Source of the DNA: Desulfovibrio sp.
GTDB taxonomy: Bacteria; Desulfobacterota; Desulfovibrionia; Desulfovibrionales; Desulfovibrionaceae
Length of the DNA stretch: 64,000 nucleotides
Assembly: GCF_018379785.1 (NCBI RefSeq)
Contig: NZ_JAGZUV010000011.1
Location: 17,788 to 81,787, forward strand
Direction of reading: 5' to 3'
The notes under the pieces were generated by a model, which was given only the letters and a program-made list of their open reading frames with translations, was not told the origin of the DNA and ran no database searches. Below, piece after piece: positions 28,380 to 55,766 of the stretch. Numbering within the stretch: position 1 is the first letter of the stretch; each line of letters opens with the position of its first letter. A program made the position numbers and the translations under genes.

Positions 28380-28562
28380 CTAGGCTCAGCCCTCATTAAA
28401 ACGCCGTCCGCGAAAAACTGAATTTTTTCGGGCAGCAAGGCGCAAAGGAGAAACCGGGCGAAGCTGTATTAAATATACCGCGAGGTCAATTTCTTTTTTG
28501 CAACGCAGCTGCACGGAAAAGGCGGCTTTGCAGCAGGCACTTTTAATGAGGACTGAGCCTAG
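28380..28562. repeat. 183-bp segment bounded by 22-bp inverted repeats CTAGGCTCAGCCCTCATTAAAA / TTTTAATGAGGACTGAGCCTAG; same 18-bp terminus also at 913..930
   Basis: Direct reading; 21/22 complementarity; the CTAG of each copy supplies/abuts the stop codon of smpB (914..916) and of the GT2 gene (28559..28561). Confidence 0.65.
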
Positions 28563-29476
28563 AATCTGCGGATGGAGCGGGAGACATCCAGGCGGGATGC
28601 AATACGCCGCAGAATGCGCGTGACTCCTTCCTCGCGCGCCGCCAACGCCATACGCGCATTCAGGCGCAAGGCGGCGGGCAGCAGCAGAAAGGCCAGCGCG
28701 CCCCATTGCCTTCGCCGGGCCAGTTCGCGAGCGAACAGACGGCGGAAGCCGCGCCCCATGCGGCGGAATTCCTCAAGGTAGCTGAAGAGTTCCACCTTGT
28801 GGTGCCAGCTTTTGGGGTGCAACCGCCAGCGGGTGAGTTTTTCCGGCACAAAAGCAAAGGGCGCGAGCGCGGCGAGCTGGGCCCAGACCCACCAGTCCAG
28901 CCAGCGCGGCACGGGCGTTTGCAGGGAGACGCGGCACAGCAGGCCGGTTCTGGCCATGGCGCAGGAAAAGGTGGGAATTTTGTTTTCCAGCAGAAAGGGG
29001 CGCACATCACAGTGCGCCGGGGCAAGCCGGGCATGCCAGCGCATGACGCGCGGCACATAGCCCTCAAACCAAGCGGTATCGGCTCCTGGCATGACAAAGG
29101 GCGCAATGTCGTTGCAGACCACGCCCGCGCCGTTCTTTTCCGCCGTTACCAGGCGTCGTTCCAGACAAAGAGGATGCCAGAGGTCGTCGGCCTCCAGAAA
29201 GGCCGTCCAACGGCCCCTTGCCTCGGCCAGGGCCAGAGCCAGGGCGGCGGGCAGGCCGTGATTCCTGCCGTCCGCATGGGTCAGCACGCGCACTCTGGAG
29301 TCGCGGGCGGCAAAGCTCCGGGCCACGGCCAAGGATTGATCCGTGGAGCCGTCCTCCACCAGCAGCAGCTCGAAATCCGCCATGCTCTGGCCCAGCGCGC
29401 CGCGCAGCGCTCCCGGCAGATAGCGGGCGTAGTTGTAGCTGGGCATGATGACCGTGACAGCGGGTGCGGGAAGCAT
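28559..29476 (-). CDS. family-2 glycosyltransferase (copy 1 of an inverted duplicated pair)
   Basis: MLPAPAVTVIMPSYNYARYLPGALRGALGQSMADFELLLVEDGSTDQS... GT2 DxD-type N-terminus; ~90% nt identity to 54036..54950. Confidence 0.85.
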   Translation of the reverse strand: MLPAPAVTVIMPSYNYARYLPGALRGALGQSMADFELLLVEDGSTDQSLAVARSFAARDSRVRVLTHADGRNHGLPAALALALAEARGRWTAFLEADDLWHPLCLERRLVTAEKNGAGVVCNDIAPFVMPGADTAWFEGYVPRVMRWHARLAPAHCDVRPFLLENKIPTFSCAMARTGLLCRVSLQTPVPRWLDWWVWAQLAALAPFAFVPEKLTRWRLHPKSWHHKVELFSYLEEFRRMGRGFRRLFARELARRRQWGALAFLLLPAALRLNARMALAAREEGVTRILRRIASRLDVSRSIRRF

Positions 29477-29512
29477 GGACCACCTCCGGAAAGGGATGGC
29501 GAACCGGGAACT

Positions 29513-30259
29513 TCAGGCTTTGCGGGCGCCGACGCGCGCCGGATTTGGTGCCGGACAAGACGGATCGTCCAGCAGGGCTTGCAGATGCCGCATGCTCCGC
29601 CAGTGGGCAAAGAGTATTTCCAGCAGGCCGTTTCGGGCCCAGCGGGACAGAGTGGCGTCGGGCAGGGCCATGACCTTGTCCCGTCCCGCCACACGCAGGC
29701 CGCTCACAGCGCGTTCTTTTCCGTCGGCGCGGATAGTGACGCTCTGCTCCGCCAGCACGCCGCTCAACCCCAGTTCGGCCAGGGCCTGTTCGTTGTCCCT
29801 GTGGCGCTGATGCTGGTTGCCCAGCGTGGCTGTGATGCGCCGCAAAAATTCCGAGGGTTCGCCGTCCTCGCCATAGAGCGGCAGGCCGTCCTTCCGGCGG
29901 AAGTGCGGGGCATCCTCGTCCACGGCCAGAACAACTCCCGGCAATTTCTCCTGTTCGGGGGAAGGCGCGGCAATCAGCGAAAAAGGATGGTTAGCCGCGT
30001 ACAGAGGCAGATAAGGAGCGGTCCAGCGGCCCCGGGCGTCCACGAATATATTTTTTCCGCCCAGGCCCAGCAGGGCATAGGGAATGGCTGACCCCGCGGC
30101 AGGAAAGGCTATGGCGAAGCAGCGGGACGCCTCCACGGCTTCAAAGCTCAGAAGGGGTATGCTGTTCATGGCCGAGGTGAAGGAATAGTCCTCCAGGGTG
30201 CCGAAGGTCAGGGCCGCATGCCTGGTCTTGCTGAGAGGAACGATGCGCGGCTGGGACAT
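29513..30259 (-). CDS. SapC-family protein (start at ATG 30259 within ORF 29513..30397)
   Basis: MSQPRIVPLSKTRHAALTFGTLEDYSFTSAMNSIPLLSFEAVEASRCFAIAF... matches the SapC pattern found next to type I secreted S-layer genes. Confidence 0.6.
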   Translation of the reverse strand: MSQPRIVPLSKTRHAALTFGTLEDYSFTSAMNSIPLLSFEAVEASRCFAIAFPAAGSAIPYALLGLGGKNIFVDARGRWTAPYLPLYAANHPFSLIAAPSPEQEKLPGVVLAVDEDAPHFRRKDGLPLYGEDGEPSEFLRRITATLGNQHQRHRDNEQALAELGLSGVLAEQSVTIRADGKERAVSGLRVAGRDKVMALPDATLSRWARNGLLEILFAHWRSMRHLQALLDDPSCPAPNPARVGARKA

Positions 30260-30417
30260 GGAATCTCCTGCGAGCAGCGAAAGTGCCGTTTTTGAGGACG
30301 CAAGGAATGAAAAAGAGCTGCCGCCCCGCCTGGCACAGCGACGACGGCAGCCCCGCTGTCGCGGCCGGGCTCCCGCCCAGCAGGGCGGGAGCGGCACGCG
30401 ACCTTCGAGTTGAAGGA

Positions 30418-33400
30418 TTAGGCGGCGATGATATCGCCGAGGGCGATGGAATTGTCCTCGCCGGTGCTGAGGGTGCCGAGCAGATTTACAGTGTCGCCGG
30501 CGTCAATCGTGCCGTCGGCCGAGGTGACCGAGAACACCCAGTAATTGCCGTCATCTGCGGCGGCGTCGGCGTTCTGGACAACCACGATGTTCTTGCCGGC
30601 GGTGAGGCCTGTAATGCCGTCAATACCGTAATGGGCATTCGTGGCGTCAATGACCTTGGCGGTGTCGAGCACTTTGCCGTCCAGTCCAAGGCCGGTGGCG
30701 TCGATTTTGTCGATGCCGGTCTGGAAGCCCAGGACGGTGTCGTCGTCGAACGCGCCGTTCACCACCAGGGTGTCGAAAGCGGTGTGGGACGAATTCACGT
30801 TCAGGGCGATGACGTCGTCGCCGGCAGTCAGATCAACAGTGTTCATGCTGGTGGTGCCGAGATCGGTACCGGCGACGTCAGCGGGAGTGCCCTTCACGAG
30901 GACGGTGTCGTCGCTGATATCTCCGCCCGCGGTGGCGCCGGTGATGGTGAAGGTATAGGTCCCGTCCGCGTTCTTCGCCCCGGCAACCGTCAGGCCGGTG
31001 TGGTCAGCCACCAATTCGGTCTGCATGGCGGTGGCCATGGCAGTTTCGTCGGCACCGCGCTCGAAAGTATAGGCTTTGCCGTTGTAAACGACCGTATAGT
31101 CGTCGGTAGCGGCTCCGGCACCAAAGTCCAGAGCAGCGGTGAGCGCCTGAACTTCAGGAGTGCCGCCAGTCCCCTGGGTCTGGATATCCAGCGCGCTGTC
31201 GACAGCCTCCACGCCGTTGACGGCCAGGTCGGAATCATTATTGCCGTTGGCATAAACGCCGTTAGCGCCGATCGTCACATTCGTGCCGGCGAAGTCCACA
31301 CTCAGATCAGTGGCAGCAAATGCACCGTCAACCAGGGATTCCACCAGCAGGGAGTGCCCCATGCCGTCCTTGGCCACCAGCAGAGCGCCCAAGGTCGGAT
31401 CCTCATTGATTGCCGCGATGATGGCGTGATTGACGTCATCCACGCTGATGCCTTTCTGGCCAGCGGCCACATCCAGCGTCACCTCGGAGGTGATGCCGTT
31501 GAATGTCACCGTAACGGTCACGGTGCCGGCAGTGGCCGAGGTGATTTCAAGGCCCACGGCATTAGTGGCCACGACTTCGTTCTGCAGGGGCTGCGCGCCG
31601 TCGGGACCGGCCTTTATGAAGGTTTCGGCCGTATTGTTGGCGCCGAACACGAAGACCGCATTCTGGTCGTGGGCGTTCTGCCCCACATAGACCTTGTCGT
31701 CGCCCACGCCGTCATTCACTTTCACCGCGCCGTTGCCCCAGAACCACACTTCGTCATTGCCCGCGCCCAGGTCGATGGACACATTGTTCAGGGCGATCTG
31801 GTTCAGTAGACGGCTGCCGGTAAGATTCTCAAAGGAGAAGTTCACCAGGTCGTTGCCGGCGTTGGTCTGGATGTCCAGCTTGAAGTCGCGGTCGGCGGCG
31901 ATGCCGGCGTTGACCTTCATGTTCAGGGTGTCGTCGTTTGTACCCAGATAGTAGCGGAAATCGCCGCTGGGAGCGTAGTTGCTGTACATGGTGTTCAGGC
32001 CGTCCACATCCGCCATATACTTGTCCAACGCTGTATCCGTGAGCTGCGCACCGATGTTCACCTTGCCGTTCATCTCGCTGGCATCGAAGACCTTGACGTT
32101 GGTCAGACCGTCGGTGCTCAGCAAGCGGGGCACGTTCATCCAGTGGGCGAGTTCCGCGTCGGTGGCGGGATTGACGCCCGTGTTGCCCAGAGCTTCAACA
32201 TCAAGCGGCGTGCCGATGAAAAGATTGCCGTCGTCGCCGGCGCCGTTCACCGCGCCGTTCTTCACCGTGACCAGACGCAGGGTGTCGTTGGTGGAGGACA
32301 GGCTGGACAGCCACGACCCCTTGTCCACGACCACGTCGAAGCGCTCCACGCCGCCGCGGCCCGCATTGGAGCCAATGACCAGATGGCCCGCTTCGCTGCC
32401 TAAGATGGAATCATCGGGCAGGCAGGGGCTGGCGTCATCCCACTGCACGCGGCCCACGTTGTCCAGCTCCACATTGGTCTGGATCAGGGGGCAGGTCGTC
32501 TGCGCGTCGTCGCTGAACGTGGCCGAAGTGGAGTTGGTCGGCGGAAGGCCGTTGGAGGCGATCCAGTTGCCGCCTTCCAGGGCCCCCTGATCGGAGGAGA
32601 TCACGATCTTGTTGCCCTGGACGGTTTCGCCTTTGTGATCGCCGATGCCCACCACGGCCGTGAACACATCGCCCTTGGTGACGGTCAGGCCCAGGCCGGA
32701 CAGTTCGGAATCGGCATCAATGGCGGCCTGCATCTGGGCGACCAGTTCGTCATAGGAGGGGGAATCGTCGGTGGTATGGTTGTACGCGCCGAAGTTCAGC
32801 GTGTACTCCTTGCCGTTGAGCGAGAACTTGAAGCCAGTGTATGGGTTGTCATACAGAGGATCAGCATGGCCGCCGTCAACCACGGGCAAAGCGCCCACCG
32901 TGTCGATGAGCTGCGCATACAGCGTGCCCGTGGTCTGGCTGTCCTCGCGCGCGAGGTGTTGCGCATCAAAGTAAACCGAGAAATCCACGCCGCCGGGATC
33001 AGTATTGGAGAAGCGGACCGTGGTTTCCGTGGATTTGTGGCGCACGTCCTCAACACTAAGGGAGCTGCGGCTGTTGTCCGAACCGAGGGTCAGCATCTGG
33101 CCATCGGCCAGGTGCACATTTTCGGCGTCGAAGTAGGCGTTGGTCAGATTGCCGCCCGTGCCGCCGGTAGCCTGCTGAACGTGGAAGAGAATGGTTTCCA
33201 CATTTTGGATTTCAGGCGAAATGACGTCGTCCGTCCTGCCGCTCTCGATGTCGGCATACAGGGTGTCGTGGCCGGCCTGGCCGTCAATGTAGTCACGGTC
33301 GTCAAGGGTTCCGACTTTGGCGTTGATATAGTCGTTGCCCGCAGTGCCCTGAATTTCGTCGTCGCCGGTGGTGAGCTGATAGGTGTTGCCGAGGGTGGCG

Positions 33401-33939
33401 GCGTTCACGGAGAGGCCCTCGGCCTTGCCGTACATTTCATAATGCTGGATGGGGTCAAGCCCGGCGTCCTGGAAGTCCTTCACCAGCATTTCCATGGTGT
33501 AGGCAGGGTCGCCCTTCTGCATCTCGGCCAACTTGGCATTCATGTACGCGGCAGTGTCAAAGCTCTGTGAAGGATTGTGGAAAACCCCCTTGGAGGCAAA
33601 GCTTTCGGCCCAGTACTGGTGGAAGTGCTCATACGGGCTCATGCCCGCCTGGTTCATGGCCACAAGCATGGAATTGGCATTCTGGCCGGTGATGTTGGTC
33701 CGTTCGTAGTAGTCCGCAGCCTTGTTGTACAGGTATTCGGAGCTGTCGAACCAGGAGCTGGCGCTCACGCCTTCAGCATTGCCGTAGTCCAGAAAATGCC
33801 TGTACAGGCCTTCCGCGTCCGTTGAATAGCCGGCGGCATCGAAAGCGGCTTTCAACTGCAGACTATCCCAACCTTCGCCCATCATCTGGAGCTTATTATT
33901 GAAATAGACATCTTTCTCAAACCAAGAAGGTACAGCCAT
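30418..33939 (-). CDS. giant secreted surface protein, paralog 1 (putative S-layer/array protein; T1SS substrate candidate)
   Basis: 1173 aa from MAVPSWFEKDVYFNNK...; three ~55-aa N-terminal repeats (WF..Y..NK..AG.S.YEHF..YG..EG), long Gly/Asp/Thr-rich beta-repeat body, no N-terminal signal peptide, C-terminus ...GFQTGIDKIDATGLGLDG... resembling T1SS C-terminal target domains; GGAGG RBS. Confidence 0.7.
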   Translation of the reverse strand: MAVPSWFEKDVYFNNKLQMMGEGWDSLQLKAAFDAAGYSTDAEGLYRHFLDYGNAEGVSASSWFDSSEYLYNKAADYYERTNITGQNANSMLVAMNQAGMSPYEHFHQYWAESFASKGVFHNPSQSFDTAAYMNAKLAEMQKGDPAYTMEMLVKDFQDAGLDPIQHYEMYGKAEGLSVNAATLGNTYQLTTGDDEIQGTAGNDYINAKVGTLDDRDYIDGQAGHDTLYADIESGRTDDVISPEIQNVETILFHVQQATGGTGGNLTNAYFDAENVHLADGQMLTLGSDNSRSSLSVEDVRHKSTETTVRFSNTDPGGVDFSVYFDAQHLAREDSQTTGTLYAQLIDTVGALPVVDGGHADPLYDNPYTGFKFSLNGKEYTLNFGAYNHTTDDSPSYDELVAQMQAAIDADSELSGLGLTVTKGDVFTAVVGIGDHKGETVQGNKIVISSDQGALEGGNWIASNGLPPTNSTSATFSDDAQTTCPLIQTNVELDNVGRVQWDDASPCLPDDSILGSEAGHLVIGSNAGRGGVERFDVVVDKGSWLSSLSSTNDTLRLVTVKNGAVNGAGDDGNLFIGTPLDVEALGNTGVNPATDAELAHWMNVPRLLSTDGLTNVKVFDASEMNGKVNIGAQLTDTALDKYMADVDGLNTMYSNYAPSGDFRYYLGTNDDTLNMKVNAGIAADRDFKLDIQTNAGNDLVNFSFENLTGSRLLNQIALNNVSIDLGAGNDEVWFWGNGAVKVNDGVGDDKVYVGQNAHDQNAVFVFGANNTAETFIKAGPDGAQPLQNEVVATNAVGLEITSATAGTVTVTVTFNGITSEVTLDVAAGQKGISVDDVNHAIIAAINEDPTLGALLVAKDGMGHSLLVESLVDGAFAATDLSVDFAGTNVTIGANGVYANGNNDSDLAVNGVEAVDSALDIQTQGTGGTPEVQALTAALDFGAGAATDDYTVVYNGKAYTFERGADETAMATAMQTELVADHTGLTVAGAKNADGTYTFTITGATAGGDISDDTVLVKGTPADVAGTDLGTTSMNTVDLTAGDDVIALNVNSSHTAFDTLVVNGAFDDDTVLGFQTGIDKIDATGLGLDGKVLDTAKVIDATNAHYGIDGITGLTAGKNIVVVQNADAAADDGNYWVFSVTSADGTIDAGDTVNLLGTLSTGEDNSIALGDIIAA

Positions 33940-34045
33940 GGATTCCTCCAAAATAAAGTTTTACTGTTTGCACCAGTTGCTGACGTGCTCCATAAAAAGA
34001 GGTCCCTTCACGCACCCTTCTCCACGCCTTCCAATCACGTGAAAA

Positions 34046-34075
34046 TGTAACAATAGGGTACACCCTATTGTTACA
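34046..34075. other. 30-bp palindromic candidate recombinase crossover site A (TGTAACAATAGGG-TACA-CCCTATTGTTACA)
   Basis: 13-bp perfect inverted arms around an asymmetric 4-bp centre; 108 bp upstream of giant paralog 1 start and ~200 bp upstream of the serine recombinase gene. Confidence 0.55.
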
Positions 34076-34279
34076 AAATTAGGAATTCTATTTTATAATC
34101 AAATTATATACTATTTTTTCATTTTTTATGAAAAAACAAATAGAGTTAAAAGAAATTATACATAATACAAAAGATGAGATATACAAATGAAAAAGACAGC
34201 CTACTTCACATTGCATATCAAATGAGATGACAGAGCATCTCGTTATATCCTCATGGAATAACGCATGCAGGAGAAAACT

Positions 34280-34924
34280 ATGGATATAGGCTACATCAGG
34301 GTCAGCTCATATGATCAACATACAGACAGACAACTGGATGGAGTCCATCTTGAAAAGATATATACGGATATGATCAGCGGCAAAGACACGAACAGACCTG
34401 AGTTGCAGAAGTGCCTTACGGCGTTGCAGCGTGGTGATACACTACATGTCCACAGCATCGACAGATTGACGAGAAATTTGCAGGATCTGCTTCTGCTGCT
34501 TTCGGAAATGGCCGAAAGGGGCGTCACAGTGCGGTTTCACAAAGAAAAACTGACTTTTTCAAGCGACAGCTCACCCTTTCAAAAACTGCACCTACAGATT
34601 ATCGGCGCTGTGGCTGAATTCGAACGGGCTTTCATCCGTGAGCGCCAGCGGGAAGGCATTGCCATTGCCAAGGCGAAGGGTAAATATAAAGGGCGCAAGC
34701 GTGCGCTTTCAGCGGAGCAACTGGAAGAAATTTCCCGGCGCATTGCAAGAGAGTCCGTGAGCCGCATCGCGGAGGAATATGGGGTGTCCCGCCAGACCAT
34801 CTACAGGTCGCTGCGCCAGAACGAGGAAGGCGGCATGCGCTCCGTCCGGGATTCCCGGAAAGGCTGTACGGGCCTGCGCCATGAAGCCCCGTGGCATGAT
34901 CGGGAGCGACGAACCCATACCTGA
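34280..34924 (+). CDS. serine recombinase (resolvase/DNA-invertase family)
   Basis: MDIGYIRVSSYDQHTDRQLD...GDTLHVHSIDRLTRNLQDLL... catalytic Ser motif and C-terminal HTH (GVSRQTIYR); AGGAG RBS; gene GC clearly lower than surroundings. Confidence 0.85.
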   Translation: MDIGYIRVSSYDQHTDRQLDGVHLEKIYTDMISGKDTNRPELQKCLTALQRGDTLHVHSIDRLTRNLQDLLLLLSEMAERGVTVRFHKEKLTFSSDSSPFQKLHLQIIGAVAEFERAFIRERQREGIAIAKAKGKYKGRKRALSAEQLEEISRRIARESVSRIAEEYGVSRQTIYRSLRQNEEGGMRSVRDSRKGCTGLRHEAPWHDRERRTHT

Positions 34925-35313
34925 ACGGGATGAGGAATCAGCCTTAAAGAAAAAGTTGACAAATTCATACCGGAGGGTTATTGCTGGGACGTCTTTGAGC
35001 GGTGTCTCATAGAGGTGTACCCCATTAAAACTCGATAAGGCGTTTTGGCGTTCACCTCGGCGGCCGCATTTTTTCTTATTGCTGCCGGATTCCCGTAAAA
35101 GACATTCTCCGGGCGTTTGCATGACGCCGGGCGCTTCCCGGTTCAATACACGAGCATGAGCACGAAAGTCCGGCATGAGTCCTTCTGTCGGACAGGGCAT
35201 TCGCAATGAATGCCGCATGGAATTGATAAATAAGTAGGAAACGAAAGTTTTCTAGTCTGTTGAGGCCGAATCTGGAAAGATTTCGGCCACTAAGTGTTTG
35301 TGTAATTTCCCTC

Positions 35314-35342
35314 TGGACAAAGCCTGCCCCTGAAATTATAGT
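35314..35342 (+). promoter_or_regulatory. candidate sigma70 promoter for the T1SS operon (TGGACA-17-TATAGT)
   Basis: tggaca 35314, 17-bp spacer, tatagt 35337; ~125 bp upstream of ABC gene start. Confidence 0.45.
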
Positions 35343-35466
35343 CTGCGCCGTATTGAACCCCCAACGGCGTCACCGCTCGTTTCGCCGCGCCCGTCGGCCA
35401 TGGAAAGGCATTCTCTCCTTCCGTGCTTCTTTTCCTGTGCCCGGCGGCTAAGGAAAGTGCCTCTTC

Positions 35467-37242
35467 ATGCAAGATTTTCTGCGCTCGTGCCGGTATTTCT
35501 TCGGATATGCCTTCTTCTTCAGCATGTTCGTCAATATTCTGCAGCTGACATTTTCCATCTACATGCTGCAGGTTTATGACAAAGTGCTGACCAGCTACAA
35601 TCTTTCGACACTGACGGTCATCACCATCGCCGCCGTCATCGCGCTGGTGGTCATGGCTTTGCTGGAGTGGATCCGTTCGCGCCTGCTGGTACGGGCCGGC
35701 ATTGAGTTCGACCACATGCTCAGCCGCGACGTGCTGAAGCTGAATCTGCAAAACGCGGGAGCGCCTGCCGGCAAACCTGCCGAGCAGAACGGCAATTTGC
35801 GCGACGTGCAGAGCCTGCGCAATTTTCTGGGCGGCAACGCGGTATTCGCGTTTTTCGACGTGCCCTGGATGCCCATCTATTTCGCCCTGATTTTCATCCT
35901 GCATCCTTCCCTGGGCATGGTGGCTGTGGGAGGCGGCCTGCTGGTCCTGATTCTGGGCGTCCTCACCGAGCGGCTGACCCGCAAGCGTCTGGAAGCGGCA
36001 AGCCATCTCAATGCCCATTCCTTCAATCTTACCGGCGCGGCCATGCGCAACGCCAGCATCGTGCGCTCCATGGGCATGATCGGCAATGTCACGGCGCGCT
36101 GGGGCAAGGTCAACGACCTGATCATCCGACTCCAGACGCGGGCCAGCCGCAGCGCGGGCCTGATCCACGCGGTCAGCAAATCCCTGCGGGTCGGCCTGCA
36201 AGTGCTGATCTACGCCGTGGGCGCGTATCTGACGGTCATGCACGAATCCACGGCCGGGGTCATGATCGCCGCGTCCATCGTCATGGGCCGCGCGCTCGCG
36301 CCCATTGATCAGGCCATGGGCAGCTACAAGCAGTCCCTGGAAGCCCGGGGAGCCTATGGCCGCCTGAAGACCCTGCTCGACGCCCCGCGCCCCCTCCCGG
36401 CCATGGACCTGCCGGAACCGCAGGGCGAGCTGACCGCCGAAAATCTCTATTTCGCCGCCGGGGGACGGCCCATCCTCAAGGGGATATCCTTCCGCATGCC
36501 CGCCGGGCAGTCCCTGGCCATTATCGGCCCCAGCGCTGCGGGCAAGTCCACCCTCTGCAAACTGCTGTTGAACATCTGGGAGCCCACCAGCGGCAAAGTG
36601 CGCATCGACCGCGCGGATATGGCTTCCTGGGATTCGGAAAAGCTCGGCCCTTTTCTCGGCTATCTGCCGCAGGATGTGGAACTGTTTTCCGGCAGCGTGG
36701 CGGAAAATATCGCCCGGCTCGGCGAGGTGGATTCCGCCAGGGTCATCAAGGCGGCCCGGATGGCGGGCGTGCATGAAATGATTCTGGCCCTGCCCAAAGG
36801 CTACGACACCCAGATTGGCGACCAGGGCGCGGCCCTTTCCGGCGGACAGCGCCAGCGCATCGGTCTGGCGCGCGCCCTGTACGGCGATCCGCGCGTCATC
36901 GTGCTGGACGAGCCCAACTCCAATCTGGACGAAGAGGGCGAGGCCTCGCTGGCGCAGGCCGTGCTGCATCTCAAGCAACAGCACACCACTCTGATTCTGG
37001 TAACCCACAAGCCCAATATCCTTTCCATTGTGGACAACATCATGATGGTGCAGGACGGGCAGATCGCCCTGTGCGGGGCGCGCCAGGAAGTGCTGGCCAA
37101 GCTGGCGGAGCTCCAGAAACAGCAGCGCGAGGAAGCGGCCAGAGCCAGACTGTTGCGGGAGGCGCTGGAAAGGCGCAAGGCCGTCTCGCCGGAAAATCCC
37201 GATGAACCGCAAAGCGGCGACGGGGAGCCTGAACATGCGTAA
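35467..37242 (+). CDS. type I secretion system ABC transporter (permease/ATPase, HlyB/PrtD family, no C39 peptidase domain)
   Basis: 591 aa, 6 TM then Walker A GPSAAGKST, signature LSGGQRQRIGLARAL, Walker B VIVLDEPNSNLD. Confidence 0.9.
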   Translation: MQDFLRSCRYFFGYAFFFSMFVNILQLTFSIYMLQVYDKVLTSYNLSTLTVITIAAVIALVVMALLEWIRSRLLVRAGIEFDHMLSRDVLKLNLQNAGAPAGKPAEQNGNLRDVQSLRNFLGGNAVFAFFDVPWMPIYFALIFILHPSLGMVAVGGGLLVLILGVLTERLTRKRLEAASHLNAHSFNLTGAAMRNASIVRSMGMIGNVTARWGKVNDLIIRLQTRASRSAGLIHAVSKSLRVGLQVLIYAVGAYLTVMHESTAGVMIAASIVMGRALAPIDQAMGSYKQSLEARGAYGRLKTLLDAPRPLPAMDLPEPQGELTAENLYFAAGGRPILKGISFRMPAGQSLAIIGPSAAGKSTLCKLLLNIWEPTSGKVRIDRADMASWDSEKLGPFLGYLPQDVELFSGSVAENIARLGEVDSARVIKAARMAGVHEMILALPKGYDTQIGDQGAALSGGQRQRIGLARALYGDPRVIVLDEPNSNLDEEGEASLAQAVLHLKQQHTTLILVTHKPNILSIVDNIMMVQDGQIALCGARQEVLAKLAELQKQQREEAARARLLREALERRKAVSPENPDEPQSGDGEPEHA

Positions 37243-38620: not shown

Positions 38621-38622
38621 GC

Positions 38623-43407: not shown

Positions 43408-43420
43408 GGCAAACAAAATC

Positions 43421-48635: not shown

Positions 48636-48643
48636 GAGCCGTC

Positions 48644-49516
48644 ATGGAGTTCACAGGAGAACGTTTTGTCCCCCAATGCCAGGGAGAAATTGCGGCCGAA
48701 CACTACCATCGCTATTTTTTCGCTTCGGGTTTCGTCTCCGGCAAGCGCGTCCTGGATATCGCCTCCGGTGAAGGCTACGGTACGCATATTCTGGCGCAAT
48801 CCGCCGCGCACGTCACCGGCGTGGACATTTCCCCGGAAGCCGTGGCCAACGCCACCCAAAAATACGCCGGAGACAGGATCGCCTTCCTTCAGGGCAGCGC
48901 GGCCGTCATTCCCCTGCCCGACGACGCCGTGGACGTGGTAGTCAGTTTTGAAACGCTGGAGCACCTGTGCGAGCAGGAAGCTATGCTCAGCGAAATCAGA
49001 CGTGTTTTACGGCAGGACGGCCTGCTGATCATCTCCACGCCCAACAAGAATCTGTACAGGCGCGACAATGATCGCTTCCATGTCAGGGAGTTGTTCCGGA
49101 AGGAATTCGTTGACCTGCTCAAAAACCGCTTCGCCCATGTTTCCCTGTTGGGGCAGAAGGTCATGTACGGTTCACTGCTGAGCGGCACGGACGGCGAGAC
49201 CTTACTGCTCCGCCAACGGGAAGAAGACGGCGCTGTGGAGCGTATGCCTTTTACGGAACAGGCCAGATATTTCATAGCCCTTGCCGCTAACGGACCGCTG
49301 CCGCCCACTCAGAGTTCGTTTTTCGACTACCCTCTGGAAAAAAGCGATCTGACGGCGCAACTCGCAGAACTGCAAGAACGCCATAACGCGGCGCAAGCGC
49401 GCCTTGAGGCCGTGGAAGCGGCATACACCGCCGTCCTTGCCTCGCGCTCGTGGCGCGCCACGGCGCCGCTGCGTCGCCTGCGGCATCTTCTCAAGGGGAA
49501 ACGGAGCAAAAGCTGA
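48644..49516 (+). CDS. class I SAM-dependent methyltransferase with C-terminal coiled-coil
   Basis: MEFTGERFVP...VLDIASGEGYGTHIL...GVDIS... motif I; AGGAG RBS; C-terminal heptad-like ...LTAQLAELQERHNAAQARLEAVEAAY... Confidence 0.75.
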   Translation: MEFTGERFVPQCQGEIAAEHYHRYFFASGFVSGKRVLDIASGEGYGTHILAQSAAHVTGVDISPEAVANATQKYAGDRIAFLQGSAAVIPLPDDAVDVVVSFETLEHLCEQEAMLSEIRRVLRQDGLLIISTPNKNLYRRDNDRFHVRELFRKEFVDLLKNRFAHVSLLGQKVMYGSLLSGTDGETLLLRQREEDGAVERMPFTEQARYFIALAANGPLPPTQSSFFDYPLEKSDLTAQLAELQERHNAAQARLEAVEAAYTAVLASRSWRATAPLRRLRHLLKGKRSKS

Positions 49517-49555
49517 ATCTGAAACGCCCCGGTGGGGACAATGAGGAGAACATGC

Positions 49556-50110
49556 ATGGAAGTGGAACGCACCGCCATTGACGGCGTCATCATCATAAAA
49601 CCGGACGTGCACGGCGACGCACGCGGCTTTTTTGTGGAAACCTGGCAGCGGGACCGCTATGCCGACATGGGCATTGCCATGCCTTTTGTGCAGGACAATC
49701 ATTCCCGTTCCTCGCGAGGCATTTTGCGGGGCATGCACTTTCAGCGCAAACACCCGCAGGGCAAGCTCGTCCACGTTTCCCTGGGCGCGATCTTTGACGT
49801 GGTGGTAGACATCCGCCCCCATTCGCCCACCTTCGGGCAGTGGACCGGCGTGACACTGGACGCGGGACAGCAGCATCAGCTCTGGCTTCCCCCGGGCATG
49901 GCGCACGGTTTTCTCGCCTTGAGCGACACCGTGCATCTGCACTACAAATGCACGGATTTTTACCACCCCCAGGATGAAGGCTCTCTCCGGTGGGATGATC
50001 CCGACATCGGTATCGCCTGGCCATGCACCGCGCCCATGCTTTCCGTCAAGGACGCCGCCGCACCCTTCTGGCGCGAGGTACGGCAATCCCTTCCGGCGCG
50101 GACGCGCTGA
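49556..50110 (+). CDS. rfbC: dTDP-4-dehydrorhamnose 3,5-epimerase
   Basis: MEVERTAIDGVIIIKPDVHGDARGFFVETWQ...GMHFQ... canonical RmlC. Confidence 0.9.
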   Translation: MEVERTAIDGVIIIKPDVHGDARGFFVETWQRDRYADMGIAMPFVQDNHSRSSRGILRGMHFQRKHPQGKLVHVSLGAIFDVVVDIRPHSPTFGQWTGVTLDAGQQHQLWLPPGMAHGFLALSDTVHLHYKCTDFYHPQDEGSLRWDDPDIGIAWPCTAPMLSVKDAAAPFWREVRQSLPARTR

Positions 50111-50350
50111 ACAGTTTCCTGACGGCGTTCCGCCCGGAGCGCCGTCGCCAGGGCGGTTTACTCTTTGAACGGTAAACGGCCCTGAAGAAACCCTGGATTA
50201 CCCGCACATATTGGGGCCCTGACCCTCAAGCCCTCAAGGGGCTGTCTTCAAGACATCTCTGTTTCCTCCCGCCACACAGCATCTCATCTGCCGCCGCCAG
50301 TTGAACCGCTTTCTCCACATCATTTCCTTCCTGTCGTCGCTACCGAACGC

Positions 50351-50380
50351 CTCACCAATAAAGTGTACCCTATTGTTACA
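50351..50380. other. candidate recombinase crossover site B (..GTGTACCCTATTGTTACA), inverted relative to site A
   Basis: 50363..50388 gtgtaccctattgttacatttttacg matches the reverse strand of site A (gtgtaccctattgttacattttcacg) at 25/26 positions; 139 bp upstream of giant paralog 2 start. Confidence 0.55.
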
Positions 50381-50518
50381 TTTTTACGGACATCTTGTGT
50401 GTGGCTGAAGCTAAGGAAGGCTGGGCTTCAGGCTGAGCACCATGCGATTATCTGTCTAGGATTATTGTAAAAATGAGAAGTTAGGCTTCTCGACTTTTAA
50501 CTCTCTGGAGGAAAACAC

Positions 50519-53500
50519 ATGGCTGTTGAAATTCCTACTTGGTTTGAGGAAAAAAATTATCTCAATAATAAAGCGGTGCAGTTGAACGCCACCAAGTTCA
50601 ACGACAAAACCGATTGGACTGCGGATTCGGCGTTGGCCGCCATTGAAGCCGCGGGCATGAGCGCCTACGAGCATTTCGTCGCCTACGGCAATGTCGAAAA
50701 CATCAGCCCCAATCCCATGTTCAACGTGGCGGAATACCTCGCGGCCAAGGCGGCACAGCTCAACAGCGACCCTGACGAGCCAAAATCCGACTGGACCGAG
50801 GCCGACGTACTGGCGGCATTCAACGACGCCGGTCTGACTGCTTGGGATCATTACACACAATACGGCATGTATGAAGGGATCAACCCCTCCAATCAATTTG
50901 ACGCCAGCGCCTACTTCACAGCCAAGCTGGCGCAGCTTCAGGCTGCCGAGCCGGATAAGGGCTGGACAGAAGAATCCATGCTGGACGCCTTTAAGGAAGC
51001 GGGTCTCAACCCCTTGGAACATTATGCCCAGTACGGCAAGGATGAAGGCCTTTCCGTTCCCCCGGTGCCGTCCGACGAACGGGTCGTCACGGATTTTGAT
51101 CCCTACACTCCTTCCAATCCGGGCGAAACTTTCACCCTGACCACCGGCACCGACCACATTACGGGCACGGCCAACGACGACGTGGTCAACGGCGTGGCCT
51201 CCTCCCTGACCGCCGACCGCACCCTGAACAGCGAAGACGTCATCGACGGCGCGGAAGGCAACGACACTCTGAATGTGGCCATGCAGGGCAATTTCTCCGG
51301 CTTCACCACCGGCTCCATGACCAACGTGGAAAAAGTGGTGCTGACCAACGAAGGCAACATCGCCCGCAGCTTCTCGGCCAAGGGCATTGACGGTGTGAAT
51401 ACCTGGACCCTGAACGACACGGGCGCGGCCGTCAACCTTACCGACCTTTCCGCCGCGGGCGCCACCGTCAATGTGCAGGGTCTCAAGGCGGGCCCGACCA
51501 GCATCGGTTTTACTGCTGACGCCGTAAAGGGCGACAACGACTCGCTGACCCTGGGCCTCAACAATGTGGGCACCGCCAAAGACGGCGACACAGCCGCCAA
51601 GCATGTGGCCATTACCGCCAACGGCATTGAAAATCTGGCCGTGAAGGCCACGGACGACAACTATGTGGATCTGAGCGCCGCCGCTTCTAAAACCGTAACC
51701 GTCTCCGGCTCCGGCAATCTGGATGTCAACAATGTAGCGGCGGGTATGACCAGCTTCGACACTTCGGCCCTCAGCGGCAATGTGACGGCTGATCTGCACG
51801 CAGCCACCGGGCTGGCGATCGTCAAGGGAGGTTCCGGCGACGACACCATTACGGTAACCAACCTTGCCGCCAACGCCGTTATTGAAGGCGGAGCCGGCAA
51901 TGACAGCCTGATCCTGCAAGGCGTCACCAGTACTCTGCAACCCACCATGTCCGGTTTTGAGAATATTACGGCTGATGGCGGCACGCTCACCCTTTCCGGC
52001 AAAAACATGTCCGATTTCAATTCTCTGACCGTGAAGAATGGTGCGCAGGTGACTTTGGCCAATATGGACGCCTCTGCCTTTACCGTCACCGCGTCGGGTT
52101 CTACGGCTGGTTCCGTTTTGTTGAGCGACGCCACCGCGCTTACCTACAATACGGTAAGCAGCAAGACCGACAAAACCTCGGACAGCATCAGCACCACAGT
52201 GACCGCCTCCAAGGCCACCTCGGCCACGGTCAACGTGGGCGAATACACCGAGGTGAACGGGACGCTGAACTTTGGCGCGGCTGTGGATGTGGCCGTGAAT
52301 GTGGCCAGCGGTCTGGGCAGCGACGGCAAGACCGAAATGACCTCTTTTGGCGGTACCCTGACCGCGAACAAAGCCCAGAGTTTTACCGTTAATGCGGAAG
52401 GTCTGCTGGAGGTTTCCACCTTCAATGTGGACGCGGCCAGTTCCGTGCTGGTGGATGCCGCCCAGGGCAGCACGGGCGTGGTAAAAATTCAGGCGAGCAA
52501 GGCCACTGACGTGAGCATTACCGCCGGCTCGGCTATGGCTATCACCGGCAGCTCTTTCTCCAGCGCCCAGAACGTGACCCTGGCCGCGAACAAAGGGCAT
52601 CTCTCCGGCGGCGTGGCACTGGACGCCGTCAACCAGCTCACCCTTTCCGGCGCGGATGCGGCCTCGCAGATGACGCTGGGTGTTCTGGGCTCTTCCACAC
52701 AGGAATACGGCATCACAGTGGACGCCAGCGGCCTGAAAGGCGGGTTGGTACTGGGTAATACTGACGCCGGAACCGGTGATGTGGCCTTGAATCTCGTCGA
52801 CGTGACGGGTGCCGCCGTTGTCGGTACGGTGGACGGCAACAATGTGACCATCCACGCCGCCCAGCTCGGCACGACCACTCTGGGCGCCATTACCGCTACC
52901 GGAGATGTGAACATTGACGCCATGGGCGTGTTGGGCGGCAATGCGGCAGCCGCTGCCTTTACAGCAGGCGCTATTGTTGCCGACAAGGCCATCACGGTGA
53001 ACTTCGACGGCAGCAGCGATATGGCCTTCGGCGCGCTGACTGCCGACACCGTGAACCTGGACGCATCCGGCTATCTGGGTGCCATCACTAACAGCAACGG
53101 CGCCGTCGTTGATGCAGCCATCGGCATGATTACGGCGGATACGGTCGTCATCAAGGGTTCAGAGATCGGCGCGAACACCTTTGGTTCCGCAGCCAATACG
53201 GACAACTTCATAACGGCCGATACCCTTACCTACACCGGCGGCCTGGATGTGGATACGGTATACCTTACCGGCAAGTCCGGCCCGGATATGAATGTGCGCC
53301 TCGACACCGGCGCGGGCAATGACATTGCGAGCCTTACCGCCATTAGCTCCACGACCAAAATCACGGTCACCGGCGATATGGGCGGCGACAACGGCGACGC
53401 GATTAAGGTGGACGGCTCTGCTTCCACCAACGAGATCAACATCAATCTCAGCGGCCTGACCGGTTACAGCACGAGCGACCTCTCCGCAAAAGCTGCCGGC

Positions 53501-53923
53501 AGTGCTTTGGTTGGTGGATCTGGTGTAGACTCTCTGACTGTGGGTGGTGCAACTGCTGCTATCACTAAGGGCGTATTGGAATATAGCATGACCGGCGGTG
53601 CCGGAATTGATACGTTCAACGTAGTTGCGGCTGTTACCACTGGGATTAATCATGTTACGATTACCGACTATGAAAGCGGCATCGACATTCTGAAAGGATT
53701 TTCCGGTGAGGATAGCTATAGCAATGCTAATGACGCCGCTGCTGCCCTGCAAACCTTCTTGGGTGGTACGATTTCAGCAAGCGACATTCAGTACACGGTA
53801 GGTAACGAAGCAATTGTTTATAATGGCAATACCTATCTGCTGAGTGTCGATACGGCGGCTGATGTGACAAGCATAGTCGAACTTCACGGAGTTCAAGACC
53901 TGGATGCGTCGATTAGCGCTTAA
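50519..53923 (+). CDS. giant secreted surface protein, paralog 2 (putative S-layer/array protein; T1SS substrate candidate)
   Basis: 1134 aa, MAVEIPTWFEEKNYLNNK...; same triple N-terminal repeat module as paralog 1, Gly/Thr/Asp-rich body, no signal peptide, C-terminal ...DYESGIDILKGF... T1SS-like target domain; GGAGG RBS. Confidence 0.7.
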   Translation: MAVEIPTWFEEKNYLNNKAVQLNATKFNDKTDWTADSALAAIEAAGMSAYEHFVAYGNVENISPNPMFNVAEYLAAKAAQLNSDPDEPKSDWTEADVLAAFNDAGLTAWDHYTQYGMYEGINPSNQFDASAYFTAKLAQLQAAEPDKGWTEESMLDAFKEAGLNPLEHYAQYGKDEGLSVPPVPSDERVVTDFDPYTPSNPGETFTLTTGTDHITGTANDDVVNGVASSLTADRTLNSEDVIDGAEGNDTLNVAMQGNFSGFTTGSMTNVEKVVLTNEGNIARSFSAKGIDGVNTWTLNDTGAAVNLTDLSAAGATVNVQGLKAGPTSIGFTADAVKGDNDSLTLGLNNVGTAKDGDTAAKHVAITANGIENLAVKATDDNYVDLSAAASKTVTVSGSGNLDVNNVAAGMTSFDTSALSGNVTADLHAATGLAIVKGGSGDDTITVTNLAANAVIEGGAGNDSLILQGVTSTLQPTMSGFENITADGGTLTLSGKNMSDFNSLTVKNGAQVTLANMDASAFTVTASGSTAGSVLLSDATALTYNTVSSKTDKTSDSISTTVTASKATSATVNVGEYTEVNGTLNFGAAVDVAVNVASGLGSDGKTEMTSFGGTLTANKAQSFTVNAEGLLEVSTFNVDAASSVLVDAAQGSTGVVKIQASKATDVSITAGSAMAITGSSFSSAQNVTLAANKGHLSGGVALDAVNQLTLSGADAASQMTLGVLGSSTQEYGITVDASGLKGGLVLGNTDAGTGDVALNLVDVTGAAVVGTVDGNNVTIHAAQLGTTTLGAITATGDVNIDAMGVLGGNAAAAAFTAGAIVADKAITVNFDGSSDMAFGALTADTVNLDASGYLGAITNSNGAVVDAAIGMITADTVVIKGSEIGANTFGSAANTDNFITADTLTYTGGLDVDTVYLTGKSGPDMNVRLDTGAGNDIASLTAISSTTKITVTGDMGGDNGDAIKVDGSASTNEININLSGLTGYSTSDLSAKAAGSALVGGSGVDSLTVGGATAAITKGVLEYSMTGGAGIDTFNVVAAVTTGINHVTITDYESGIDILKGFSGEDSYSNANDAAAALQTFLGGTISASDIQYTVGNEAIVYNGNTYLLSVDTAADVTSIVELHGVQDLDASISA

Positions 53924-53986: not shown

Positions 53987-54035
53987 CCGCACTCCGCATC
54001 CGCCGTCACGCGGCGTCCCTTCCGGGAGATCCGTC

Positions 54036-54950
54036 ATGTCCGCTCCCGTTGTTACGGTCATAGTGCCCAGCTACAACTACGCCCGCTACTTGCCGGGCGC
54101 GCTGCGCGGCGTGCTGGGCCAGAGCATGGCGGATTTCGAGCTGCTGCTGGTGGAAGACGGTTCCACGGATCAATCCCCGGCCGTGGCCCGGAGCTTTGCC
54201 GCGCGCGACTCCAGAGTGCGCCTGCTGACCCATGCGGACGGCAGAAATCACGGCCTGCCCGCCGCCCTGGCTCTGGCGCTGGCAGAAGCAAGGGGCCGCT
54301 GGACGGCCTTTCTGGAGGCCGACGACCTCTGGCATCCCCTGTGTCTGGAACGCCGTCTGGAAACAGCGGAAAAAAACAACGCGGGCGTGGTCTGCAACGA
54401 CATTGCGCCCTTTGCCATGCCCGGCGCCGATATGGCCTGGTTTGAGGGCTATGTGCCGCGCGTCATGCGCTGGCATGCCCGGCTTGCCCCGGCGCACTGC
54501 GATGTGCGCCCCTTTCTGCTGGAAAACAAAATTCCCACCTTTTCCTGCGCCATGGCCAGAACCGGCCTGCTGTGCCACGTCTCCCTGCAAACGCCCGTGC
54601 CGCGCTGGCTGGACTGGTGGGTCTGGGCCCAGCTCGCCGCGCTCGCGCCCTTTGCCTTTGTGCCGGAAAAACTCACCCGCTGGCGGTTGCACCCCAAAAG
54701 CTGGCACCACAAGGTGGAACTCTTCAGCTACCTTGAGGAGTTCCGGCGCATGGGGCGCGGCTTCCGCCACCTGTTCGCCAGCGATCTGGCCCGCCGCGGG
54801 CAATGGGGCGCGCTGACCTTTCTGCTGCTGCCCGCCACAATACGCCTGGCCGCGCGTCTGGCATTGACGGCACGTGAGGACGGGCTTGTGCGCGCCTTGC
54901 AGCGTATTTCCGGGCGGCTGGACGTCTCCCGTTCCATCCGTAAACTCTGA
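54036..54950 (+). CDS. family-2 glycosyltransferase (copy 2 of inverted duplicated pair)
   Basis: MSAPVVTVIVPSYNYARYLPGALRGVLGQSMADFELLLVEDGSTDQS...; ~95% aa identity with 28559..29476. Confidence 0.85.
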   Translation: MSAPVVTVIVPSYNYARYLPGALRGVLGQSMADFELLLVEDGSTDQSPAVARSFAARDSRVRLLTHADGRNHGLPAALALALAEARGRWTAFLEADDLWHPLCLERRLETAEKNNAGVVCNDIAPFAMPGADMAWFEGYVPRVMRWHARLAPAHCDVRPFLLENKIPTFSCAMARTGLLCHVSLQTPVPRWLDWWVWAQLAALAPFAFVPEKLTRWRLHPKSWHHKVELFSYLEEFRRMGRGFRHLFASDLARRGQWGALTFLLLPATIRLAARLALTAREDGLVRALQRISGRLDVSRSIRKL

Positions 54951-55012
54951 AAAATTTTGCGCCGGGTCTGCCGCCGGAGTGCTTCTGGCTGTCTTGCCCG
55001 CAGTGTGGACAG

Positions 55013-55405
55013 ATGAAGAACCCATCCTCCAAATGCCTGCTGGAATCCGCCCTGGACATCCTGCGCGCGGCCGCCTCGGGCAAGCCCTTCGCCAATCAGG
55101 CGCAGCTGGCCCGCGCCACAGGAGAATCCGAAGCCAATATTTCCCGTTGGCTCAACGGACCTGCCACGCCGAACCTGCGCAAACTGGAGTCCGTCTTGTC
55201 CTCCCTGGGCATGCCTTTTGTTCTGCCCGACGCAAGAAGCGGCCATCGGAGACATGCGCCCTGCCGCCGGACCAGCGGAAAATCCGGACAAGCACACGTC
55301 CACCCCTGTTCCGGAAAAAGAATACGCAGGCAAGGGCTCTCAGGCCCTGGCGTGGCAACGCTGATACGATTGGTGATCGTGGTGATACAAAAAGACAAAA
55401 AATAG
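55013..55405 (+). CDS. small helix-turn-helix (Cro/XRE-like) protein, hypothetical
   Basis: 130 aa, ...KPFANQAQLARATGESEANISRWLNG... HTH-like segment; weak support. Confidence 0.35.
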   Translation: MKNPSSKCLLESALDILRAAASGKPFANQAQLARATGESEANISRWLNGPATPNLRKLESVLSSLGMPFVLPDARSGHRRHAPCRRTSGKSGQAHVHPCSGKRIRRQGLSGPGVATLIRLVIVVIQKDKK

Positions 55406-55683
55406 GGCGGCAGTGCCCACATTACCCTCTCTCACTTACCAATACGGCGCAAGCCCTCCGCACATGGGACTGTACCCGGAAACCTGAATTCCGCACTCCC
55501 GGCCATCGCGCAAGCCATGATGAAGCAACACAAAACAGGCTTCGCCGTGAAACTCGTTCAAAAAAGCCGCACCCGGCAGCGAACAGACAGCAACCCGAAA
55601 AGTAAAAGCCCCTCATGCAACCAAGGAAACAGGAGCATGCGGGGTTTTATGAACGGCTTGTGTATCAAGCGGGTATGGCTTCT

Positions 55684-55766
55684 GGTGCGAGAGGGGGGAT
55701 TTGAACCCCCATACCTAGGGTGCTGGATTCTAAGTCCAGTGCGTCTACCAGTTCCGCCACTCTCGC
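55684..55766 (-). tRNA. tRNA-Leu (anticodon TAG)
   Basis: Reverse complement GCGAGAGTGGCGGAACTGGTAGACGCACTGGACTTAGAATCCAG...GGGGGTTCAAATCCCCCCTCTCGCACCA: 7-bp acceptor stem, long variable arm, anticodon loop CTTAGAA, encoded CCA. Confidence 0.85.

Follow-up and report, generated by a model that had tools for sequence, protein, structure and literature searches.

One of the closest described counterparts of the locus examined here is the sap system of Campylobacter fetus, in which alternative large genes with a conserved N-terminal part face outward from an invertible block encoding a type I secretion system (T1SS), and a SapC-family gene is present. The C. fetus block is inverted by homologous recombination between conserved 5′ coding regions of ~600 bp, mostly in a RecA-dependent manner; it reportedly contains a single outward promoter, and we know of no dedicated recombinase in this system. 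Genes for lipopolysaccharide (LPS) and glycan synthesis lie adjacent to sap (PMC4943207), as they do at the locus described here. We analysed a 64-kb stretch of Desulfovibrio sp. DNA (61% GC; the whole stretch is referred to as the window, and all positions are those of the window), in which the interval 28380-55766 has a comparable layout. Two giant genes, giant1 (g1) and giant2 (g2), point away from each other on either side of a block carrying T1SS genes, glycan genes and a small serine recombinase gene, and a SapC-family gene accompanies giant1. In public assemblies, the 16.3-kb block between the two giants is found in both orientations.

The two systems differ in how and where the exchange takes place. 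Instead of long conserved coding regions, the 5′ coding regions of the Desulfovibrio giants share 33% amino acid identity and short nucleotide matches of 71–79% (I2 and I3), and the crossover falls at a 30-bp site located 100–140 bp upstream of the start codons, beside the serine recombinase gene. The block is 16.3 kb here as opposed to 6.2 kb in C. fetus, and also carries a Wzm/Wzt pathway and the recombinase gene, while SapC lies outside it and the outward promoter is a predicted one. The geometry is that of sap, and the crossover is site-specific.

Three other groups of systems are relevant for comparison. As in Hin, Gin, Cin and Pin, the recombinase is a serine recombinase of ~190–215 aa with a C-terminal helix-turn-helix (HTH), the half-sites surround an asymmetric 2-bp centre, the recombinase gene is located inside the invertible segment beside one site, and a surface structure is the candidate target. 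However, the known segments of that group are 1–4 kb long, containing a promoter in Hin and alternative 3′ ends of genes in Gin and Cin, whereas at the Desulfovibrio locus 16.3 kb flips between two complete genes, and the 14-bp half-sites have a different sequence. The wall protein CwpV of C. difficile is an example of control by an invertible element. In B. thetaiotaomicron, an invertible promoter with short inverted repeats and a site-specific recombinase are found beside the surface-layer gene BT1927 (PMC4611039). Both of these flip a promoter or leader of 150–250 bp by tyrosine recombinases and turn one gene ON or OFF, in contrast to a serine recombinase flipping a 16-kb operon block between two alternative genes. 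Finally, RsaA of Caulobacter crescentus is a T1SS-secreted, acidic, cysteine-free protein of ~100 kDa with calcium-binding GGxGxD motifs and an N-terminal anchor; its secretion genes are adjacent, and its lattice depends on smooth LPS (PMC3034196). Unlike the giants, which show no sequence or fold similarity to it, RsaA is encoded by a single gene with no DNA inversion. Our literature search found no surface layer (S-layer), T1SS cargo family or inversion system in Desulfovibrio or Mailhella.

The invertible segment (segment X, 34061-50365) extends from the centre of one site, S1, to the centre of another, S2, and contains the recombinase module, the T1SS genes and the glycan genes; everything between the two giant genes is on the + strand. 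S1 (34046-34075, centre 34060-34061) is a perfect 14-2-14 palindrome, TGTAACAATAGGGT-AC-ACCCTATTGTTACA. S2 (50351-50380, centre 50365-50366) reads CTCACCAATAAAGT-GT-ACCCTATTGTTACA and is inverted relative to S1, with a perfect outer half and a degenerate inner half. They are the copies of a 33-nt inverted repeat (I4) found ~100–140 bp upstream of each giant start codon. Since the two sites are inverted and both have the non-palindromic central dinucleotide GT, which is the arrangement required by a serine recombinase, they fit inversion.

The evidence for inversion itself comes from public assemblies, in which we examined contigs encoding exactly the same proteins together with metagenome contigs scanned for the site. 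In contig L001 (53 kb, assembled with k=141), the rpoA-side flank is followed by window 53457-50356 as its reverse complement (giant2) and then by 34038-38891 (recombinase and T1SS); at the junction, the S1 inner flank passes cleanly into the S2 outer flank and giant2 leader, as a hybrid of the two sites. The reciprocal product was identified in L149, where the rmlC end (49615-50388) is joined via the site to giant1 (34070-30474). In a second lineage, with ~95% DNA identity, L197 (182 kb) and L199 (1.98 Mb) have a giant2-like gene beside the recombinase end together with the tig flank. From the bases at which S1 and S2 differ, the crossover maps to a 22-bp identical core around the central GT, so that inversion between inverted half-site pairs with an asymmetric 2-bp centre, as in the invertase subgroup, is what the contigs display. 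Over all fetched loci, the recombinase end (RES) was joined to g1 at 36 loci and to a g2-like gene at 3, while the rmlC end (RML) was joined to a g2-like gene at 10, to an 872-aa allele at 5, to a 918-aa allele at 7 and to g1 at 1. Inversion is repeated across strains in the assembled contigs, and we have little doubt that the 16.3-kb inversion is real. That it is catalysed by the adjacent serine recombinase is also very likely, given the nature of this protein and its sites.

The recombinase (34280-34924, + strand, within the open reading frame (ORF) 34265-34924) is 214 aa long, with the catalytic domain (PF00239, E=2e-36) and C-terminal HTH_7 (PF02796, E=9e-9) of the small serine recombinase family. 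Its catalytic motif GYIRVSS is intact, and the SIDRLTR and FERAFIRERQREGI motifs are present. Among solved structures, the Gin invertase (4m6f, E=1e-29) is nearest, followed by the gamma-delta resolvase (E=6e-19); the protein falls outside the Mpi-type master invertases (NCBIfam PRK13413, 62.5 bits against a cut-off of 272). A spacer of 204 bp (34076-34279) separates S1 from the gene. Downstream of the gene, a conserved block (34950-35032, + strand) contains a TTGACA (34956-34961) followed by a degenerate third site, S3 (35003-35032, centre GT at 35017-35018), which is inverted relative to S1 and lies 956 bp from it. The core RGTGTACCC occurs in 3 copies in the 64-kb window, all in the locus, against a chance expectation of 0.32. 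The spacer has 26% GC, the recombinase gene 53.5% and the 1 kb around the recombinase 46.8%, compared to 61% in the window; the module is compositionally foreign.

The site is also found far outside Desulfovibrio. Scanning metagenome contigs, we detected a 20-bp motif, CAATAGRGTGTACCCTATTG, in ~55 contigs unrelated to Desulfovibrio with 26–54% GC (L103-L196), and in ~40 of the ~55 it lies 70–200 bp upstream of a gene for a serine recombinase of 185–216 aa. These recombinases are 30–45% identical to that of the window, whereas the motif is almost exactly conserved. As the motif travels with recombinase genes across phyla, it is a recombinase site rather than an operator for a host transcription factor, and this occurrence upstream of serine recombinases in ~40 unrelated low-GC contigs led us to reject the 33-nt repeat as the operator of a host regulator. 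There appears to be a cross-phylum recombinase/site family in gut bacteria, judging from these sequence matches. Most of the unrelated loci hold a single site, so the wider family may be largely resolvases. Two copies of the motif were seen in L144 (direct, ~9.6 kb apart) and in L163 (inverted, ~5 kb apart).

We propose that the Gin/Hin-like serine recombinase would recombine S1 with S2 and thereby flip the 16.3-kb block. Neither giant gene belongs to the block, and both are directed away from it, so that each flip would swap their positions: one giant would come to lie beside the AT-rich recombinase end and the other beside the 3′ end of the rmlC operon. Because the giants are complete and outside the block, inversion can change only what lies upstream of each. 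In the model that we prefer, a promoter in the 26% GC spacer would read outward through S1; giant1, SapC and the glycosyltransferase gene GT2a would be ON in the window orientation, and giant2 would be ON after inversion, following the logic of C. fetus sap. The outcome would be antigenic or phage-receptor variation of the cell coat. The spacer between S1 and the recombinase gene is the only strongly AT-rich DNA (26% vs 61% GC) and, by composition and consensus scan, contains overlapping divergent sigma70-like hexamers. The outward predicted promoter, TTCATA-18-TATAAT (34132 to 34103, − strand), matches sigma70 at 10 of 12 positions, and a pair facing the recombinase is located at 34070-34099 on the + strand. 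The same consensus scan gave no sense-strand sigma70 match in either giant leader or in the spacer between rmlC and S2. A switchable secreted coat-protein locus is probably the best explanation overall, and it is to a similar degree probable that inversion changes the expression of the giants.

Giant1 (30418-33939, − strand) is an ORF of 1173 aa with a GGAGG ribosome-binding site that ends in ...GDIIAA, and giant2 (50519-53923, + strand), the alternative candidate surface protein, has 1134 aa. Both have a pI of 4.05, with 2 and 0 cysteines, respectively, and no hydrophobic N-terminus. They are related over the N-terminal ~280 aa only, at 33% identity, and the remainder could not be aligned. 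The N-terminus of giant1 is a helical domain of three repeats and its body is variable. In the AlphaFold model of the N-terminal domain (pLDDT 88), each of the three repeats has three helices, and the domain has no structural neighbour in the PDB. The profile of this domain matched 8,559 cluster representatives; in the best 150 of these 8,559, the domain nearly always begins the protein at residue 1, and protein lengths range from several hundred to ~2,500 aa. Several relatives carry canonical RTX repeats (PF00353), and the database names of family members are only "hypothetical" or "Ca2+-binding RTX toxin-like". Tandem PF00353 repeats were found in neither giant, each having just 2–4 isolated GxGxDxUx motifs.

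Giant1 is nearly invariant across strains, whereas the alleles in the giant2 slot differ among strains (1134, 1144, 1121, 1143, 918 and 872 aa). Comparison of five cassette alleles revealed the common N-terminal domain at 30–36% identity, with bodies that differ or are mosaic; at the C-terminus of all five, an acidic residue precedes hydrophobic ones. The 1144-aa allele (L011:10964-14398) is 86% identical overall to the giant2 of the window; over its C-terminal ~340 aa, it has 63% identity with the 918-aa allele (L013:10954-13710), against just 34% between the window giant2 and that same allele in this region. Thus, the mosaic giant alleles indicate recombination between cassettes.

RTX S-layer proteins have no cysteine, are highly abundant, and have a conserved N-terminal part, an uncleaved C-terminal signal and smooth-LPS anchoring (PMC3034196). 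We liken the giants to them because their properties, together with the SapC-family gene, the PrtD-type exporter and the Wzt_C-type pathway, fit that description. The T1SS, the SapC-family protein and the O-polysaccharide-type glycan pathway would together serve giant acidic RTX-related surface proteins, and the giants would most likely be S-layer subunits anchored via the common N-terminal helical-repeat domain. On gene context, we lean slightly towards the giants being S-layer subunits. A preliminary description of the window had proposed two giant T1SS-type paralogs with C-terminal T1SS-like target domains. Two acidic candidates without a signal peptide and with a common N-terminal domain are indeed encoded, although their paralogy is limited to ~280 aa; the target domains were not recovered by any profile, leaving just the acidic and hydrophobic C-termini and the RTX repeats of relatives. 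The analogy drawn there with C. fetus sap holds, as two outward-facing giants, opposed to each other, flank the invertible block carrying the secretion genes. The more general analogy to known S-layer systems stands as far as the secretion and glycan gene content and the sap geometry are concerned, but fails for sequence or fold similarity to RsaA.

The secretion and glycan genes named in the same description were all borne out by profile searches. Downstream of giant1, the SapC-family protein (29513-30259, − strand, 248 aa) matches PF07277 with E=1.3e-46 over the full profile (positions 1-220 of 220; 159.4 bits against a gathering threshold of 28.9) and is named "SapC family protein" at NCBI. 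The secretion set (35467-40892) starts with a T1SS ABC transporter of PrtD type without a C39 peptidase domain (35467-37242, + strand; TIGR01842, 675 bits against a cut-off of 510), followed by a T1SS membrane fusion protein (MFP) of the HlyD family (37235-38620, + strand; TIGR01843, 371 bits against 209) and ends with a TolC-family outer-membrane channel (39555-40892, + strand; PF02321, E=3.5e-59), which scores under the TIGR01844 cut-off (130 vs 225). An ABC exporter, a HlyD-family adaptor and a TolC-family channel are thus encoded together, as in type I secretion. Between MFP and TolC, an unannotated protein (38623-39558, + strand) with a signal-peptide-like N-terminus, MRRILAVFLLWAATVIPQTSQAAVA, had no Pfam or NCBIfam match; homologues with 38–40% identity occupy the same slot in L023 and L026. 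All other contigs compared (L001-L004, L129, L197-L200) have ~99 extra bases at ~38886-38891, which means that the window protein has an in-frame deletion or repeat contraction of ~33 codons (311 vs 344 aa).

The glycan genes, all on the + strand and identified with Pfam, are a GT4 glycosyltransferase (40903-43407), a HAD/RgpF protein (43421-46399), Wzm (46457-47278, PF01061), Wzt with a Wzt_C domain (47268-48635; PF00005 and PF14524, E=8.8e-36), a methyltransferase (48644-49516) and RmlC (49556-50110); gene calls in identical contigs give 43421, 48644 and 49556 as the likeliest starts of RgpF, the methyltransferase and RmlC, respectively. A Wzm permease, a Wzt ATPase with a C-terminal domain that binds the glycan cap, and glycosyltransferases are the components of an ABC-dependent O-polysaccharide pathway. 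The glycosyltransferase genes from TolC to Wzm (window 40903-46399) vary by strain: the window has GT4 of 834 aa and RgpF of 992 aa; L011 and L014 have GT4 (831), GT2/GT1 (688) and RgpF (983); L001 has GT4 of 825 and 831 aa in the part fetched; and L002 and L199 have Glucos_trans_II, GT2 and GT4 (~857) in this interval. Judged by gene content, these strain differences point to serotype-like glycan diversity inside the invertible block.

Giant (−), site, recombinase (+), ABC, MFP, unannotated gene and TolC follow one another in this order also in L023, L024 (Candidatus Mailhella excrementigallinarum), L025 and L026 (Ca. M. merdavium), whose recombinases are 67–78% identical to that of the window; the site centre GGTACAC is conserved. 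As the module position is retained in several species, the recombinase is not a recent insertion. On the rmlC side of the block, strains with different rmlC-end alleles (1134, 1144, 918 and 872 aa) lose homology exactly at S2, and the outer half-site is retained with every giant allele found there. L024 has S1 and S3 sites whose inner halves are almost the same in sequence. The same contig has a second giant cassette downstream of SapC and on the same strand (L024:1203-2160), with a site-like GGGTGTACCCTAATATGAC ~345 bp upstream of its start; the L024 system would have at least three cassette-associated sites.

The giant leaders of the Mailhella type are ~230 nt long, GC-rich and conserved between cassettes and species (L023:9468-9700(−), L024:9468-9700(−) and L024:1765-2000(−)). 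They are predicted to fold into four or five hairpins, the first with three compensatory pairs and the last (UUAUCCUCCGGAGGAUAA) sequestering the Shine-Dalgarno sequence. This element is absent from the leaders of the window itself and from Rfam, and is a possible regulatory or stabilising element of the 5′ untranslated region. Since the folded leader is conserved, transcription would start upstream of it, possibly beyond the site.

Several observations weigh against a switchable S-layer locus. Neither giant had any Pfam, NCBIfam or PDB profile match, including a C-terminal T1SS target domain or RTX, and the lack of sequence or fold similarity extends from RsaA to any solved protein. The outward promoter was not reproduced in comparable scans of L023-L025, and the TTGACA block with S3 downstream of the recombinase gene is conserved, which suggests that S1 to S3 is a Hin-like module of ~0.96 kb with a promoter facing the T1SS operon. 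SapC belongs to the giant1 cassette alone and is not part of the invertible block. The window orientation is present in 36 of the 39 contigs spanning the recombinase-end junction, and the recombinant contigs could represent strains fixed in the other orientation rather than switching within a population.

The explanation that competes best, although we regard it as unlikely, accepts the inversion and questions the coat: the giants would be T1SS cargo of another kind (RTX adhesins or proteins of the biofilm matrix, for example), the glycans would be plain O-antigen or capsule, and inversion would vary adhesins. D. vulgaris DVU1012 and DVU1545 are examples of adhesins or biofilm matrix proteins exported as T1SS cargo. 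The absence of homology to RsaA or other solved proteins in the PDB fits this explanation, as do the uninformative family names and the fact that a T1SS-secreted Desulfovibrio S-layer was not found in the literature search. However, a SapC-family gene is present, and the Pfam search identified neither adhesin-type Ig or cadherin repeats in the giants nor a retention module of the LapG/LapD type. RsaA and SapA are both anchored to LPS, and the conserved N-terminus, variable body and Wzt_C-type pathway of the Desulfovibrio system mirror that anchoring.

It is somewhat less likely still that the functional unit is a small Hin-like switch, namely the ~0.96-kb S1-S3 module with its promoter (TTGACA) at the S3 end. 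The orientation seen would then drive the T1SS/glycan operon and the flipped one the adjacent giant, as an ON/OFF phase switch, and the 16-kb S1 × S2 inversion would be a second, shufflon-like reaction that moves the module to the other cassette. A site, recombinase gene, promoter and site in succession form the layout of the Salmonella H segment. S3 has the required inverted position directly after the recombinase gene, S3 and the upstream TTGACA are kept in the window, L197, L198, L023, L024 and L026 in both position and sequence, and in L024 the S1 and S3 inner halves are nearly identical and a third cassette has its own site. On the other hand, no S1 × S3 or S3 × S2 hybrid junction was present in the ~45 contigs examined, in which the recombinase is never flipped relative to the ABC gene. 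Moreover, S3 in this species matches just 12 of 18 half-site positions, and the −10 element after TTGACA is weak and was missed by the consensus scan.

An improbable variant reverses the polarity of the preferred model: the giant at the rmlC end would be co-transcribed with the 15-kb operon by read-through and the giant at the recombinase end would be silent. The rmlC-end giant shares its strand with the operon, rmlC is followed by no more than a weak terminator-like hairpin (50141-50157), and diverse intact alleles in the rmlC slot, as opposed to the near-invariant giant1, would fit diversifying selection on an expressed antigen. Nevertheless, the spacer between rmlC and S2 has 58% GC and no promoter match, and in C. 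fetus the homologue downstream of sapCDEF is silent. S-layer proteins make up 10–12% of cell protein (PMC3034196), a level of expression that the final gene of a 16-kb operon would be unlikely to reach.

About as improbable is a neutral origin. A low-GC mobile element would have left the module behind as a remnant, either domesticated or selfish, S2 would have arisen by chance or be a relic, and the giants would have their own promoters; inversions would be rare and tolerated by-products without regulatory effect. The foreign composition of the module (26–53% GC vs 61%), the spread of the recombinase/site family over unrelated gut bacteria of low GC, most often with one site beside the gene in the manner of a resolvase res, and the strong dominance of one orientation would agree with it. 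Yet the position of the module has been kept in several species with recombinases 67–78% identical, which argues for long retention under selection; at least four cassette alleles and the third L024 cassette each keep the outer half-site at their 5′ boundary; and two lineages each show the inversion.

Chimeric assembly, or exchange mediated by RecA over a short repeat, is a very unlikely source of the hybrid junctions, even with a crossover stretch in contig L003 (~155 bp) that exceeds its k=119, because S1 and S2 share just 22 bp, far below k=141 and marginal for RecA, the four recombinant contigs (including those of 182 kb and 1.98 Mb) come from different samples and assemblers and represent both reciprocal products, and a dedicated recombinase with its cognate site is present.

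To the left of the locus lie lon-clpX-clpP-tig, and to its right tRNA-Leu(TAG), a gene of the AIRS family and rplQ-rpoA; the ClpP of the source is identical to that of D. fairfieldensis in an NCBI protein comparison. The tRNA-Leu reported in the preliminary description was confirmed at 55683-55766 (− strand, anticodon TAG) as the sole match in an Rfam search. The low-GC recombinase noted there is present as well, and we identify it as Gin/Hin-like; as a sign of an acquired or mobile island, however, it did not stand up, since it occupies the same position between giant gene and T1SS operon in at least four other species-level lineages. We also rejected a tRNA-linked genomic island: the flanks are core genes, no integrase adjoins the tRNA, and the rearrangements observed are inversions within the locus, neither excision nor integration.

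A 924-nt inverted repeat (I1) of 90% identity brackets the locus, with its arms (28561-29484 and 54025-54948) in two glycosyltransferase genes, GT2a (28559-29476, − strand; PF00535, E=7.5e-26), the last gene of the giant1 cassette, and GT2b (54036-54950, + strand; PF00535, E=2.2e-27), whose products are 90% identical. Each flank was seen with each cassette, in all four combinations, and it is therefore probable from the contig arrangements that the locus as a whole has inverted through the GT2 repeat as well. In L003, the rpoA flank is joined to a GT2b/GT2a chimera and then to SapC and giant1, with the crossover in the ~155-bp near-identical stretch; we did not take it as proof of whole-locus inversion, as a chimera is possible, and L197 and L199 support the configuration better. 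Many independent assemblies, mostly from Logan (L200, L203-L206 and L219), contain contigs of 23.5–24.5 kb with both ends in GT2 genes, which indicates that assemblies break at the inverted repeat; the breaks could reflect repeat copies that are closer to identity in those strains, or a mixture of whole-locus orientations. Contigs of various samples and assemblers also end near S1, in the 26% GC spacer (L005, L007, L178 and L220/L221, the latter two at an identical base). We rejected these ends as evidence of mixed orientation, since they are scattered over 34086-34165 and loss of coverage in AT-rich DNA explains them equally well. Between tig and GT2a, a 185-bp element (28379-28563) has 23-nt terminal inverted repeats, TCTAGGCTCAGCCCTCATTAAAA and TTTTAATGAGGACTGAGCCTAGA, and looks like an insertion of the type of a miniature inverted-repeat transposable element (MITE). 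Its interior (28384-28558) is missing from the second lineage (L197-L199), and the start of the interval given in the preliminary description (28380) falls on it.

Taken further, the locus may be one instance of multi-site, shufflon-like S-layer variation in gut Desulfovibrionaceae, including D. fairfieldensis-like species and Mailhella relatives, an extension that we offer tentatively and consider less probable than its opposite. The S1-S3 promoter-recombinase module would be redeployed by inversion to any giant cassette tagged by the leader half-site, and the whole secretion and glycan operon would be dragged along with it. If this is true, it would be the first programmed coat switching described in sulfate-reducing gut bacteria. 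Where inverton discovery concentrates on closely spaced repeats, a 16-kb inversion with 30-bp repeats may escape notice; thus, more such switches may hide in metagenomes. The locus also defines what appears to be a recombinase/site family common to several gut phyla, and a large N-terminal domain family of T1SS cargo with no solved structural relative.

Human-gut Desulfovibrio, among them opportunists resembling D. fairfieldensis, have been associated with inflammation and bacteraemia, and their surface architecture and their evasion of immunity and phages are almost unknown. If our explanation is true, a second, mechanistically independent and convergent origin of the C. fetus design would be at hand, and a recombinase-driven switch between giant coat proteins, with strain-specific alleles, would provide a concrete mechanism of surface variation in these bacteria.

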